Position numbers and translations under genes: made by a program. DNA of 64,000 nt. It comes from a virus. Location of the stretch: the IMG/VR virus record IMGVR_UViG_3300045988_167643; one strand, 5' to 3'. Shown piece after piece: positions 4,546-40,785 of this stretch (positions are counted from its first letter, which is position 1; each line of letters opens with the position of its first letter). The notes beneath the pieces were generated by a model that saw only the letters and a program-made list of their open reading frames with translations, did not search any database and had not been told where the DNA came from.

Positions 4546-4796
4546 AATACTACGGAAAAATTACATATGAAATAGATAAGAATCATCCGGATGTAAATTA
4601 TGTTGCTGGTGGTTGGTACAAAGGGAAAGTATTTAAGTACGAAGATACTTACGGATTTGACGAACGATTGTATTCACCAGAAGATCATTATATACTTGTC
4701 AATTCCATTAAAAAGGATTTAAAACTTGTCGCAGGTGGTGGATATAATACAAACCATATTCACAATGTAAAATTTGAAATCCGAAGAATAGCGTAG
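4542..4796 (+). CDS. hypothetical protein
   Basis: 84-aa ORF, ATGA overlap with upstream gene, GGAGG SD. Confidence 0.6.
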   Translation: MKYYGKITYEIDKNHPDVNYVAGGWYKGKVFKYEDTYGFDERLYSPEDHYILVNSIKKDLKLVAGGGYNTNHIHNVKFEIRRIA

Positions 4797-4809
4797 GGGA
4801 GTAGGTAAA

Positions 4810-4965
4810 ATGAAAGATTATACAGTGATGGTTAAAAAATACGGTTTTATTACCATTGAAGCAGAAGATGATGAGGATGCTCTGGAACAGGTAGATGGAC
4901 TATCATCTTCTGATTTTGATTGGTCAGATTTTGGTGAAGCTCAAATTGTTGAAGATAAAGATTAA
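4810..4965 (+). CDS. small acidic hypothetical protein (51 aa)
   Basis: GGGGAG SD 9 nt upstream; fills gap. Confidence 0.5.
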   Translation: MKDYTVMVKKYGFITIEAEDDEDALEQVDGLSSSDFDWSDFGEAQIVEDKD

Positions 4966-35797: not shown

Positions 35798-36364
35798 ATG
35801 AGAGATCCAAAGAGAATTGATAAATTTTGTGATGAATTTAAAAGCATATGGAAAGGAAATGTTCCTGATTGGAGATTTGGACAGCTGATAGGTAATTTTG
35901 AATACTGGCTCAAAGGCAAAGGAATTGATATGTTCTTTCCGGAAGAAAAAGAAATGCTTAGATTATTTAAAGAATTTCTTGGCGTAAATGATACAGGAAA
36001 TGAAAAAAAGATATGGGACGAAATGATGTTTTGTTCGCCACTTGATTTCAAAGATCTTGATGGAAATAAATATGACCAATGGCCAGAGGGTGTCATTTAT
36101 ACTCCTGGAATAAAATTAACTGGAATATTAAAAAAGAAAGCGAGAACAGGTTATTGTGGAGTGACTACAAAAGATGCAAAAAAGATAATTGACAATATAT
36201 CTGATAAGCGAAAACAAAATGTAAAAGTTGTTATTGGAAATAGAGCAGAAGTCTGTGATGCAATTTTATATATTATCAAATCTAATTACGGATTAATTGT
36301 ATCTGTCGATGATGCTGAAGAAATTAAATTCTGTGAAGAACTTTTTGAAAAGGCAACAACTTAA
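35798..36364 (+). CDS. hypothetical protein
   Basis: 188-aa ORF, CGGAGA SD. Confidence 0.6.
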   Translation: MRDPKRIDKFCDEFKSIWKGNVPDWRFGQLIGNFEYWLKGKGIDMFFPEEKEMLRLFKEFLGVNDTGNEKKIWDEMMFCSPLDFKDLDGNKYDQWPEGVIYTPGIKLTGILKKKARTGYCGVTTKDAKKIIDNISDKRKQNVKVVIGNRAEVCDAILYIIKSNYGLIVSVDDAEEIKFCEELFEKATT

Positions 36365-36410
36365 AATTGGAGTTTTATCGGAAAATAATTTTATAAAAGG
36401 AGAATGGTAA

Positions 36411-36575
36411 ATGAGTAATTTAGTTGTTAAAAAATATGATTGCCAAAAATGTGTAAAAGATAATGGTTGTGTATATAAGAAACGTTATGACAAATTCAAA
36501 AGTAATGTAGAAGGGCGTGAATATGGAAAGACGATAATATTGAAAATAAGTTGTCCATTTTATAAAGAAGTATAA
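36411..36575 (+). CDS. small Cys-containing hypothetical protein (54 aa)
   Basis: AAGGAG SD 9 nt upstream. Confidence 0.5.
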   Translation: MSNLVVKKYDCQKCVKDNGCVYKKRYDKFKSNVEGREYGKTIILKISCPFYKEV

Positions 36576-36669
36576 GTTGAATTTCTGGAATAAGTGATAA
36601 TGAAAAATGGAAGTAGTAATTGTGAGGTGATGATAGATATGATTGATCGAGATTTAAATAAAAACGTTG

Positions 36670-36968
36670 TTTATTACAAAATGTAAATTAATAGGTATAC
36701 AAAACCAATTACCAGATTATCATAAATACCTACTGTTTTGTAACCATGTAAATTAAGAGGTATACAAAACCAGATCCCCTTACACGACTGACACGGCGTT
36801 GTTTTGTAGTCATGTAAATTAAGAGGTATACAAAAATATGGATGGACGATCACAAGTCCTACAGAAGTTTTGTAACCATGTAAATTAAGAGGTATACAAA
36901 ACCAAACGAAAAACTCAAAGTTGATACCAAATGTTTTGTAACCATATAAATTAAGAGGCATACAAAAC
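36670..36968 (+). CRISPR. CRISPR array: 5 x 36-nt repeats, 4 spacers of 29-30 nt
   Basis: Repeats at 36670 (degenerate), 36735, 36801, 36867, 36933; consensus GTTTTGTAACCATGTAAATTAAGAGGTATACAAAAC; spacers unique. Strand inferred only from co-orientation with the nuclease gene. Confidence 0.9.
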
Positions 36969-37150
36969 CTCAAAGTATAGTTTTATACCTCTTATTTTAA
37001 GGCACTTCTATGAAATAGACTAAGAGAAATCTACGTTATAAAAAGATAATATGTTATGGTGTCGCTCTAGCTGTAATTATATCGTTTGTACCTAAACATA
37101 CACTGTGCCGAACATGATTGGTGTAAGTGATACAAACATGTAACTTTTTA
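36969..37150 (+). ncRNA. putative tracrRNA / omega-RNA-like scaffold
   Basis: Anti-repeat GTTTTATACCTCTTATTTTA (36980-36999) complementary to the 3' 22 nt of the repeat; downstream stems (GTTTGTA 37084-90 / TACAAAC 37131-37); T5 run at 37145-49. Ends are guesses. Confidence 0.55.
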
Positions 37151-37212
37151 TAACATTGTCGAAGAGCATGACCAATTTTAAATTGAGATTATATTATAAA
37201 GGAAATAAAAAT

Positions 37213-38952
37213 ATGAATTATATGGATTTTGTATTAATTGTGGATAAAAATAGTAAACCATGTATACCAATAAAAAATGGTAAAGCAGGTTATTTATTAA
37301 GAGAACATAAAGCAGAAATTATAAATCACGAGCCATTAGTTATCAAAAGAACTGATGATTATAATTCGGATTTAGAAAATAGAGATATATTTGAATTAAA
37401 AGTAGATAGTGGATATTTAAATATCGGATTTTCTGTAAGCGATAATGAGCATGAATATATTGCAGGTCAAGTTGAAATGCTAAACGGAATGAGTAATAGA
37501 TTGTTAGAAAGAAAATCTATGCGTAGTTTCAGAAGAAATCGTTTACGTTATAGAAAAAATAAGAACATTGATTATAAAACAGTACATAATCCTACTTATA
37601 AAAATGGAAATGAAGATGGATGGTTTGCACCGTCTATTGTACATAAAATGGAAACGCATATCAGAATCATTGAGCAATTAAAACAATGGGTTCCAATCGA
37701 TAAAGTTATTGTAGAGGTGGCAAATTTTGACATTGCTGCAATGGATGCATATTTAAAGGACGGAACTATTTTAAATGGAAAAGATTATCAAAATGGTGAA
37801 ATGAAAGGATATGAGAATGTTGTATCTTATGTAAGAGCCAGAGATAATTATTCTTGTTACTTTTGCAATAAGAAAAAGAAAAAAGATGGTACACTAAAAG
37901 AGAAACCAAAAAGAATAGAAGTGCACCATAAAATACCAAGATCCTGGGGTGGTACTAATAATCCAGGAAATTTGATTTGCGTATGTCAAGGATGTCATCA
38001 GAAAATACATTCGAATAATAATAACAACAAATATTTTAAAGAATTATTAGAACAAGCTTTACAAGAAAATACATTTAAAGATTCTACATATATGAATATT
38101 GTTAGATGGGAATTATTAAACAGACTTACTGAAAAATATCCAGAGCTTGATATTGAAGCTGAATATGGTTATAACACAAAAATTAATAGAAAAGAAGCAG
38201 GTTTGAGAAAATTCCATTATAATGATGCAGTTTGTATAAAAGAATTTAAGAATATAACTTTATCTAAAAAAGTATTTATTGTCGAACAAAAACGTTGTAA
38301 TGATAGAAAAATGGAAAGTTTTGCAGATGCAAAATATATAGATTCAAGAGATGGTAAAAAGAAAAAAGGAAATGATCTAAAAGTAATTAGGCATAGTACT
38401 AAATCAAAACGCTCTACAAATAAAGAACATATTGATAATGAAAGAATCTTTAGAAAAGAGAAAGTATCTAAGGGTAAAATACAATTTGAGTGTCATTCAT
38501 ATTGCGTAAAACCAGGAGATTTAATATACATAAAAGAAGGTAAACATAAAGGGAAAATTGCAGAAGTTTCTACAATACAGATTGTAGGCGAAAAAATTCC
38601 TAATCCGATAATTGATATTAATGAGATAAATAATAAAAAAATTGATTTCAACAGAGAGTTGAAAAAAAGAAAAACAACTTCTAATATGACTGATTATCAA
38701 AAACGTTTTGCAAAATATCAAATTAGATTTACATATAAAGAATCTGATGCAGATGGACCATCTATAACGCTTACGCAAAAAGAATATGAAAAGCTTAAAG
38801 AGAATAAATCAGATAGAGTAAAAATTATTCGTACCAGACGTGGATTAGTTTGGAGAGAGTACGACAGACTTACATATGAAGCCGAAAATATGGATCAGGA
38901 AGAAAAGAAATTAGAAGTAAAAAATAAGAAACAAGAATTAAAAGCTGCATAA
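37213..38952 (+). CDS. iscB: IscB-like RNA-guided nuclease (PLMP-like, RuvC-I, bridge helix, RuvC-II, HNH, RuvC-III, C-terminal domain), CRISPR-associated
   Basis: FVLIVDKNSKPCIPIKNGKAGYLLREHKAEII; ELKVDSGYLNIGFSV; RKSMRSFRRNRLRYRKNK; KVIVEVANFD; CYFC..EVHHKIPRSWGGTNNPGNLICVCQGCHQKIH; KFHYNDAVCI. ATG 37213 follows AAAGGA; the track start TTG 37156 probably lies inside the RNA scaffold. Confidence 0.85.
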   Translation: MNYMDFVLIVDKNSKPCIPIKNGKAGYLLREHKAEIINHEPLVIKRTDDYNSDLENRDIFELKVDSGYLNIGFSVSDNEHEYIAGQVEMLNGMSNRLLERKSMRSFRRNRLRYRKNKNIDYKTVHNPTYKNGNEDGWFAPSIVHKMETHIRIIEQLKQWVPIDKVIVEVANFDIAAMDAYLKDGTILNGKDYQNGEMKGYENVVSYVRARDNYSCYFCNKKKKKDGTLKEKPKRIEVHHKIPRSWGGTNNPGNLICVCQGCHQKIHSNNNNNKYFKELLEQALQENTFKDSTYMNIVRWELLNRLTEKYPELDIEAEYGYNTKINRKEAGLRKFHYNDAVCIKEFKNITLSKKVFIVEQKRCNDRKMESFADAKYIDSRDGKKKKGNDLKVIRHSTKSKRSTNKEHIDNERIFRKEKVSKGKIQFECHSYCVKPGDLIYIKEGKHKGKIAEVSTIQIVGEKIPNPIIDINEINNKKIDFNRELKKRKTTSNMTDYQKRFAKYQIRFTYKESDADGPSITLTQKEYEKLKENKSDRVKIIRTRRGLVWREYDRLTYEAENMDQEEKKLEVKNKKQELKAA

Positions 38953-38961
38953 AAAAAGGAG

Positions 38962-40785
38962 ATGATCATTATAGACTCAGAAGAGAAAAATACTCAACAG
39001 TCCATTCTGCGCAAGCATTTTGAGATGCTATATCCGGATAAACTAAAGGATGATGAATGGATAAGACTGGTACGGATAAATAAAATAAGCAATGAAACTT
39101 TTGTCGATTACATAAAAACTTATGATGAATATTACAATTATATTCAAACTTATAAATGGAATTTTGATTTATATAATCAACTTGCAACAAATATTGGACG
39201 TGATAAAGGAACAGAAAGTCAACAGAGAACAAGAAGAGTTTTGTTCCTGGATTTTGATCAGAAAGATTACGAACGATTATCTGGGGCAAAAGCATTTACA
39301 GGCTTCATAAAAAGTAAAATAAAAAAATTGTTTCTACATGCATGTATAAATTCAGGACATGGGTATCACTATTATATATGTATTGATGAAAAAGCTAATA
39401 ATGCAAAAGAAGTTGTAGAGCTTAATAAAACACTTGCAGATATCTTTAGAGCAGATCTTAAGGCAACATTATCAACGCAAATCGCGCGAATTCCATGCTC
39501 TTTTAATCACAAAACAGAAGATGGAGAATATGACTATCAAGATCCAGGTAAGTGGGAATATGTGAGAGTTGTCAATAATGCATATAAAAATGGACCACAG
39601 TATAGAGCATATCCATTATCTGAAATTAGAAGTTACATATCAGATTATTACAAAAATCTGGATAAAGAGGTAAATATTTTTGCCCTGAAAGAATGGAAAG
39701 AAGCGAAAAGCGGAAAAGAATTTAATTATTTCTGTATTGAGCGTGTTAAACATGAAGGAGCGGTTAAGGGACAGCGTAACTTCTGGCATGGTCGAATTGT
39801 TAAAAGTATGCAGAAACAGGGTTATAGTGAGCAAGAAATTTTTGCGGCATGTAAAGAATATAATGCAGCCTGTATTCCACCAAAATCTGATAGTGTAATT
39901 TTAGATGACACGGCAAGATTTTTGAAAAAGAAATATAACTTAACAGGATGTTATGGCGCTTTTCCAGAAAATGATGAAAGACATTGGTGGGTCGCTATGC
40001 AGTGTGATGAAGCAAAATGTAAGACTTTTAATTGTGGGCTTTGTATAACGGAAATGGATACCGATGAAAAACACAATCCACAAAGGGCTGCTGGAGCAAA
40101 AATAAATAAGAAGATTTTGAAGAATAGTACCATTAGAAAGATGACAGGAAACGATTATTTGGTCATAACTCTTATTGATGTTTATGAAGTATTATACGGA
40201 AGAAAAGGGTTTAGAGTAAGAGATTTAATTGACAAATTAAAATCAAAATATGCTAAGAGAAGATGTATTGGAGATAAAACGTTAAAGCCTCTTTTACTTA
40301 ATTTACAAGAAAAGAAATGGATTCAGATTGTCGAAGATAAAAAGAAACCAGGAGTATTTCTTGATTCCAGACTTGTACTGAACAGAAGATTAAAAGAAAT
40401 CCAGCAAGGCTATATTGAATTTTATTTTAATATAGCGAGAGCATTAATTGATGGTCGAATTGTTGCTAATGAATATTTAGTCTACATTACATTACTAAGA
40501 AATCTTGATAACGGAAGACCTGTTACATATGATGAACTAGCTTACGATTTAGATTTTTCGAGACAAAATGTTGCTAAGTATATTAAAAATTTGGAAGATG
40601 CAGGATGTATTTTTATCAGTAAAGGAACAACCGATAAAGGATTTGAATGTAATAAATATCGTGTAACTAATCCTCAATTATTTGACGAGATTGATAGAAA
40701 GAGAAGAAAAGAATTTGAGAAAGCATCAGTTACTCTTGCAGATGAACAGAGTAATGAGCTTAGTGAAGCAATATTAATAGCGTAG
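38962..40785 (+). CDS. replication initiator: AEP primase-polymerase domain + PriCT-like + C-terminal winged-helix
   Basis: AEP motifs VLFLDFDQ (DxD), NSGHGYHYY (sGxGxH), IARIPCSFNHK; then FWHGRIVKSMQKQGYSEQEIFAACKEYN; C-terminal wHTH YDELAYDLDFSRQNVAKYIKNLEDAGCIF. Start codon uncertain (SD abuts the ATG). Confidence 0.7.
   Translation: MIIIDSEEKNTQQSILRKHFEMLYPDKLKDDEWIRLVRINKISNETFVDYIKTYDEYYNYIQTYKWNFDLYNQLATNIGRDKGTESQQRTRRVLFLDFDQKDYERLSGAKAFTGFIKSKIKKLFLHACINSGHGYHYYICIDEKANNAKEVVELNKTLADIFRADLKATLSTQIARIPCSFNHKTEDGEYDYQDPGKWEYVRVVNNAYKNGPQYRAYPLSEIRSYISDYYKNLDKEVNIFALKEWKEAKSGKEFNYFCIERVKHEGAVKGQRNFWHGRIVKSMQKQGYSEQEIFAACKEYNAACIPPKSDSVILDDTARFLKKKYNLTGCYGAFPENDERHWWVAMQCDEAKCKTFNCGLCITEMDTDEKHNPQRAAGAKINKKILKNSTIRKMTGNDYLVITLIDVYEVLYGRKGFRVRDLIDKLKSKYAKRRCIGDKTLKPLLLNLQEKKWIQIVEDKKKPGVFLDSRLVLNRRLKEIQQGYIEFYFNIARALIDGRIVANEYLVYITLLRNLDNGRPVTYDELAYDLDFSRQNVAKYIKNLEDAGCIFISKGTTDKGFECNKYRVTNPQLFDEIDRKRRKEFEKASVTLADEQSNELSEAILIA

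Follow-up and report, generated by a model that had tools for sequence, protein, structure and literature searches.

The window, by which we mean the whole stretch of 64,000 nt of viral DNA analysed here, contains a CRISPR array that adjoins an iscB gene and is oriented in the same direction, as expected of a CRISPR-associated IscB. An earlier note, made from the letters of the sequence, had the scaffold end at a nuclease gene, in the manner of IscB loci, and both an NCBIfam model and relatives of solved structure identify the open reading frame as an IscB. The protein matches NF040563 (guided_IscB) with 250.2 bits against a cut-off of 175, residues 7-342 covering positions 1-313 of the 314 in the model. 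Its best PDB relatives are IscB chains, namely HfmIscB (1e-24) and OgeuIscB (4e-21), and the alignment spans from the N-terminal PLMP region to RuvC-III. The domain organization is that of an IscB, with PLMP, a split RuvC with inserted HNH, an arginine-rich bridge helix and intact catalytic residues. RuvC residues D65, E168, H335 and D338 and HNH residues H238 and H239 are invariant in 22 family members, and the Pfam domains RRXRR and HNH are present in the relatives. A type II Cas9 identity is ruled out by the IscB size and the IscB equivalog match. Among the 72 ORFs of at least 100 aa in the 64-kb window, no Cas1, Cas2, Cas4 or Csn2 family was found. Pfam likewise gave no Y1 transposase (TnpA) family on these ORFs, so that an IS200/IS605 context is missing; TnpA is also absent from most IscBs (PMC9755519).

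Other ORFs of the window code for two DNA methyltransferases, a T4-type RNA ligase, an adenylosuccinate synthetase, ClpP, a phage integrase, a MazF/PemK-like toxin, a LexA-like DNA-binding protein and YopX, a gene content that would fit a large temperate phage or a similar mobile element. Just before the array lies a Cys-rich 54-aa ORF (36411-36575; CxxC...C...C), conserved in three of the loci described below (L001-L003). Directly 3′ of iscB is a 607-aa ORF (38962-40785) with a weak C-terminal winged-helix match (Sta1/Lrs14-like) below the cut-off. This neighbour is also found in L043 and L044, L042 has a 574-aa ORF at that position, and the more distant relatives L045, L046 and L049 carry, instead of it, an NAD-dependent DNA ligase a few genes 3′ of iscB. 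In L004, a skipping-rope RNA (RF02924; 71 bits versus a gathering threshold of 36.7) is located just 3′ of iscB (4761-4841), and clusters of tRNA genes flank iscB in L023 (1142-1684 and 4708-6523) and L030 (4314-4830).

The array is made up of five 36-nt repeats separated by spacers of 29-30 nt, and its last repeat ends 244 nt before the iscB ATG (Table 1). The repeat termini are palindromic, and most related arrays, too, have a degenerate distal repeat. Spacer 1 is common to the window and L002, while the remaining window spacers are unique. Repeat 5 carries two substitutions with respect to the consensus (36946 G>A and 36959 T>C), because of which it pairs less strongly with the anti-repeat than the internal consensus repeats do (-13.1 versus -18.7 kcal/mol). 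An omega-proximal repeat with private substitutions that weaken pairing was also observed in L001 (2721-2756).

Table 1. Array, omega RNA and iscB in the window (window positions)
Feature	Position	Strand	Remarks
Repeat 1	36670..36705	+	5′ half degenerate (TTTATTACAAAATG...); repeat most distant from omega RNA
Repeats 2-4	36735-70, 36801-36, 36867-902	+	Consensus repeats, alternating with spacers
Spacers 1-4	36706-34, 36771-800, 36837-66, 36903-32	+	Spacer 4 is the candidate cis guide
Repeat 5 (last)	36933..36968	+	Ascending strand of guide-adaptor stem
Parts of repeat 5	lower stem 36933-40, internal loop 36941-47, upper stem 36948-68	+	RNAduplex, MFE, covariation
Linker/apical loop CTCAAAGTATA	36969..36979	+	11 nt between repeat 5 and anti-repeat
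Anti-repeat	36980..36998	+	Descending strand of upper stem; 16 pairs, 92% paired, 9 compensatory
Internal-loop segment between upper and lower stem	36999..37008	+	Variable in the family; extra hairpin in L028
Descending strand of lower stem, UAUGAAAU	37009..37016	+	3′ strand of HEARO P1; pairs with repeat nt 1-8, GUUUUGUA
Omega-RNA (HEARO) core	37017..37172	+	HEARO match, covariation
Long-range helix	37018-20/37158-60	+	Omega-RNA core
Nexus-like hairpin	37023-25/37030-32	+	Omega-RNA core
Helix containing T5 run	37035-45/37144-54	+	Omega-RNA core; conserved, covarying
Hairpin	37054-60/37070-76	+	Omega-RNA core
Composite stem	37084-37102/37122-37137	+	Omega-RNA core
Terminal hairpin, CAAT/ATTG stem	37173..37185	+	Before ribosome-binding site; 3/4 pairs compensatory
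Ribosome-binding site AAGGA	37199-37203	+	Upstream of iscB
iscB	37213..38952	+	579 aa; guided_IscB match; invariant catalytic residues

The segment that the earlier note had placed 11 nt past the last repeat (36933-36968), complementary to the 3′ 22 nt of the repeat, was found exactly there. This 20-mer, GTTTTATACCTCTTATTTTA (36980-36999), forms with the 3′ 22 nt of the consensus repeat a duplex of 19 base pairs with one 2-nt bulge and one U-U mismatch, and inverted-repeat detection pairs 36976/81-36999 with repeats 2-4 at 83-89% complementarity. If as many as 3 mismatches are allowed, the 20-mer should occur 0.10 times in 64 kb, counting both strands; the only sites obtained were the 20-mer itself and the three consensus repeats on the - strand. 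RNAduplex gave -18.7 kcal/mol for the consensus repeat against 36969-37020 (z = -3.5), a value reached by 2 of 1000 dinucleotide shuffles. Since a few unrelated AT-rich windows elsewhere score equally, duplex energy alone is weak evidence. The fold of the 313-nt region is no more stable than those of shuffles (z = -0.95), and in its full-length MFE structure the repeat is paired with itself. A fold with a cis-only HEARO P1 (36981-87/37009-15) and a self-folded repeat reaches -3.9 kcal/mol, versus -9.4 to -14.1 kcal/mol for the repeat:anti-repeat structure, and is also disfavoured as the main fold by its absence from most relatives. The locus has the repeat/anti-repeat hairpin that links the guide to an omega-like scaffold in CRISPR-associated IscBs.

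HEARO is the RNA now recognised as the IscB omega RNA (PMC9755519). In comparison with its covariance model, Rfam HEARO (RF02033), the window aligns over the full length, positions 1-211 of the model corresponding to 36981-37172 (56.4 bits, E 1.3e-10), although below the gathering score of 83; the match is seen only in the E-value mode of Rfam, and at the gathering threshold nothing was matched in the whole window. Scores are 44-57 bits for the relatives and 108 bits for L030, a canonical phage IscB locus included as a control. P1 and the hairpins inside it, both replaced in the window, account for most of the missing score. In L030, the HEARO match ends 30 nt before the ORF, and the window scaffold has the same position and orientation, so that the scaffold indeed stands where IscB loci carry their omega RNA and with that polarity, as had been claimed. 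Helices that covary across the family are found upstream of, and co-oriented with, the ORF. The two stems noted earlier at 37084-90/37131-37 and 37099-103/37121-25 are real, coinciding with HEARO helices and covarying pairs. The T5 run (37145-49) was rejected as a terminator, being the 3′ strand of the covarying helix 37035-45/37144-54. A scan for sigma-70 promoters and terminators gave counts not above those of shuffles and no usable promoter on either strand.

We collected 36 related phage loci with 41-100% protein identity, of which 28 (48-100%) are located on IMG/VR phage contigs of 6-222 kb and 8 (41-86%) come from Logan and ENA assemblies. No member of the family was found in 185,579 GTDB species genomes, where only non-CRISPR IscBs of 34-38% identity were found, and GenBank phages showed no similarity to 36300-39000. 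None of the homologues lacks a repeat-complementary segment: all 36 keep repeat, anti-repeat, scaffold and iscB. They share a layout of 1-8 repeats, followed in most by CTCAA(A/T), the anti-repeat, an AUAGA-type HEARO core and iscB, with 232-292 nt between the end of the array and the start codon. The array arrangement is present in 35 of the 36. The exception, L007 (2723-2758), has one repeat and zero spacers and keeps the full hairpin, and its "guide" would be ordinary upstream sequence. The CTCAA(A/T) motif, directly past the last repeat (36969-36974 in the window), is unpaired and nearly invariant (L001-L028 and L042-L048; exceptions are GCCAAA in L017 and L018, GTCAAT in L046 and its absence from L049). 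A more distant IscB (33% identity), L029 (2201-2963), was observed on a 248-kb phage contig with a HEARO match of 57 bits; it has an unrelated 36-nt repeat, GTTGTAAATGGGTTTCAAAATAAGGTATTAAACAAC, with its own matching anti-repeat, ATACCTTATTTT, and may represent a second phage CRISPR-IscB lineage.

An alignment of 26 distinct homologous sequences, reaching from the last repeat to the ATG, shows covariation that supports the proposed repeat:anti-repeat duplex. Repeats vary by clade and the anti-repeat changes accordingly, for example TAAATTCATAAGAT (repeat segment) and ATCTTATGAATTTA (anti-repeat) in L005 against AAATTTATAGGTATC and GATGCCTATAAATTT in L006. RNAalifold recovers the repeat:anti-repeat helix de novo together with the HEARO helices, and 28 of the 42 pairs are compensatory. 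In the 16-pair upper stem, 92% of the cells are paired and 9/16 pairs show changes on both sides. Upper and lower stem together are 89.6% paired, compared with 40-58% when the partner is slid by 1-3 columns, and none of 500 shuffles equals this value. The best partner of a repeat is the region 3′ of it in the same locus, at -18 to -26 kcal/mol, as compared to medians of -7 to -13 kcal/mol with other loci. Both sides have changed in 24 of the 40 scaffold pairs (helices 3-10), and the scaffold helices are 91-100% paired, versus about 40% when the whole structure is slid. Over the whole RNA, 94.3% of the cells of 62 pairs are paired and 34/62 pairs are compensatory.

According to the earlier note, 14 nt of the repeat were left unpaired next to the spacer. 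This does not hold for repeat nt 1-8, which pair with 37009-37016, immediately 5′ of the AUAGAC core, in both RNAduplex and MFE structures; the oddity is thereby mostly, not entirely, explained. Folded as single sequences, the window and 10 of 11 other loci have an MFE structure in which lower stem, internal loop and upper stem follow one another. When clades are compared, a repeat 5′ end UUUUAG goes with the lower-stem partner CUAAAA or UUAAAA, UUUUGG with CCAAAA or UCAAAA, and UUUUGUA with UAUGAAA. Support for the lower stem is moderate, because the helix comprises few, mainly U/A, pairs, its register shifts from clade to clade and a clean double change is seen in one pair only. With repeat nt 1-8 paired in this way, the entire repeat is predicted to be the ascending strand of the omega-RNA 5′ stem.

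Taken with the protein family, the sequence features, the homology to omega RNA and the covariation of every helix in the + sense, these observations make it likely that the locus encodes a phage-borne CRISPR-associated IscB which, using a cis single guide and internal repeats paired as in crRNA:tracrRNA, would carry out guided cutting beside a TAM. A + strand transcript would run from the array through the scaffold toward iscB. The first 7-8 nt of the repeat would pair with 37009-37016 to give the lower stem directly 3′ of the guide, and repeat nt 15-30(36) would pair with the anti-repeat (36980-36998) to give the long upper stem. The 11-nt loop joins both strands at the last repeat, so that a natural single guide would be made up of spacer 4, repeat 5 and the omega RNA; the internal repeats could pair with the anti-repeat likewise, in the manner of crRNA:tracrRNA. 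IscB, whose RuvC and HNH sites are intact, would then cleave TAM-flanked DNA that corresponds to the 3′ portion of the spacer. We infer transcription and processing of the RNA, its loading and the cleavage of DNA, as well as the share that cis and trans guides each have.

The same hairpin could instead be a precursor, with RNase III or another nuclease cutting the upper stem so that the effector would always work with two RNAs, a crRNA and a tracr-like omega RNA, and spacer 4 would be unremarkable. We regard this as a possibility to be taken seriously, if somewhat doubtful. In type II systems, a long duplex is the substrate of RNase III, and the upper stem, of 16-22 bp, is such a duplex; moreover, the internal consensus repeats bind the anti-repeat better than the mutated last repeat does, and the DelIscB paper leaves processing open (PMC12660989). 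However, L007 retains the full hairpin with one repeat and no spacer, the loop is short, and a truncated single-guide form is functional for DelIscB (PMC12660989).

In the preferred reading, the single guide would be transcribed with the array from the + strand, and the earlier note had considered that the polarity of the array was not settled by sequence. The bias of G.U over A.C among cells that are not Watson-Crick pairs settles it as the + strand: the upper stem has a ratio of 26:5, the lower stem one of 13:0 and the scaffold one of 75:11. [quoted passage not shown] Both observations point to the + strand as the array RNA that matters. They make it very unlikely that the array is read from the - strand, with 36980-36999 as a copy of the repeat and crRNAs that serve a host Cas9 or replace the 5′ end of the omega RNA. 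For such a polarity speak the degenerate repeat at the far end, the palindromic repeat termini, promoter-like sites on the - strand (37217-37188 and 37244-37217), whose number is not above that in shuffles, and the junction between the last repeat and the loop. The reverse complement of this junction, (A)TTTGAG/GTTTT (the slash marks the repeat boundary), corresponds to the type II-A group 1 leader-repeat junction ATTTGAG/GTTT (PMC5382924). Besides the wobble bias and the partner tracking, a crRNA partner in the omega RNA would on this account comprise at most 8 bp, leaving 16 covarying pairs unexplained. Most improbable is that the inverted repeat is mainly a DNA or transcription signal outside the guide scaffold (an attenuator between array and iscB, or an integration site): the conserved loop CTCAA, which pairing does not explain, and a weak terminator-like hairpin on the - strand (36971-36955) would suit it, but the helix occupies exactly the site of the HEARO 5′ stem, its wobble pairs indicate selection at the RNA level, and no U-tract follows the hairpin.

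The leader-like junction may bear on how spacers are acquired. The type II-A leader-end motif plus the first repeat has been reported to be sufficient for integration. In close relatives, the distal spacers are common and the proximal ones different. Together with the degenerate far repeat, the shared distal spacers and the leader-like junction suggest that spacers might enter at the omega-proximal end, possibly by means of host type II-A adaptation proteins, an idea that we put forward as rather unlikely. If true, the array would be "inverted", with an acquisition polarity opposite to that of transcription, and new spacers would land directly 5′ of the cis-fused repeat. The newest spacer would then be a processing-independent single guide of a phage nuclease without adaptation genes of its own.

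The spacers of the window yielded no protospacer: spacers 2, 3 and 4 had no exact match in IMG/VR, and spacers 2 and 3 had none in JGI metagenomes. The 73 spacers of the family gave one marginal match against GenBank phages, in which L028 spacer 2 (2657-2686) is identical over 25/25 nt to Bacteroides phage BU2-1 (PQ571281, 26949-26973; E 0.08). Two degenerate patterns for recurrent spacers matched only the arrays themselves, plus one partial match of 21 nt. Therefore, no TAM was derived. Within the family, spacer 1 of L016 (2638-2667) matches the related phage L015 (1662-1691) in 27/30 positions with a perfect 3′ 12 nt; the matched sequence belongs to a 68-aa HTH-like ORF beside a Sir2-like gene and is flanked on its 3′ side by GAAAATGG. 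Such a match hints at targeting of phage by phage. Diverged spacer pairs for the same protospacer were observed in L027 (2380-2475), in L006 (2491-2585) and between L013 (2702-2731) and L017 (2702-2731), which suggests that spacers may have been acquired repeatedly from variants of one target.

CRISPR-associated IscBs were reportedly described by Altae-Tran et al. in Science in 2021, with 31 such loci. The CRISPR-IscB concept is thus already published and the window locus is a phage-borne example of it, so that its value lies in the example and its details and not in a new principle. The arrangement is the same as that of DelIscB, in which an ncRNA upstream of the ORF comprises spacer plus repeat, anti-repeat and omega-like scaffold, and whose DR/anti-repeat hairpin can be shortened to a single guide (PMC12660989). 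Whereas DelIscB has 457 aa and stems from an aquatic metagenome, the proteins of the window clade have 513-579 aa and were encountered exclusively on contigs of large phages (up to 222 kb). With canonical OMEGA IscBs (OgeuIscB, L030) the window shares the protein family, the scaffold core with its long-range helix, nexus-like hairpin and stems, and the upstream position and polarity of the scaffold. In a canonical omega RNA, however, both strands of P1 belong to a single molecule, two small hairpins lie inside P1, and there is one fixed guide. In the window family, a CRISPR repeat, found 1-8 times with different spacers, takes the place of the ascending strand, and no TnpA was found in the window.

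The likeness to the crRNA:tracrRNA of type II systems (II-A, II-C and II-D/Cas9d) extends to a spacer located 5′ and a repeat 3′, to the succession of lower stem, internal loop or bulge, upper stem and nexus-like element, and to the lengths of spacers (29-30 nt) and repeats (36 nt). The repeats of the window clade resemble type II-A repeats (SaCas9, SpCas9), and the window sequence ...UAAAAAUAGACU...CGUUAU resembles ...UAAAAUAAGGCUAGUCCGUUAU of the SpCas9 tracr. Unlike in type II systems, the place of Cas9 is taken by an IscB, which has a PLMP domain and lacks a REC lobe; the scaffold consists of an entire omega RNA, about 190 nt long, and last repeat and anti-repeat are joined in cis. Virus-borne mini-CRISPR arrays are likewise short and without nearby adaptation genes, and as with them one spacer (that of L016) matches a related phage; in contrast to mini-arrays that rely only on host Cas proteins, these phages carry both effector and scaffold RNA.

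The view of the earlier note that the first stem strand of an omega RNA had been duplicated into the array agrees with the published one of Hirano et al., in which the crRNA replaced the ascending strand of the omega-RNA 5′ stem during Cas9 evolution (PMC9581776). The locus exemplifies in nature the step that leads from an omega RNA in one piece to crRNA plus tracrRNA: a loop still closes the guide-adaptor stem at the last repeat, while the ascending strand of that stem already occurs in several copies with different spacers. With approximately 26 distinct sequences and heavy covariation, the family supplies a secondary-structure model that can be used as it stands for the nuclease, which is compact and programmable, and its guide. 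Systems of this kind, with spacers that vary, are carried by large phages and probably serve in conflicts with other mobile elements.
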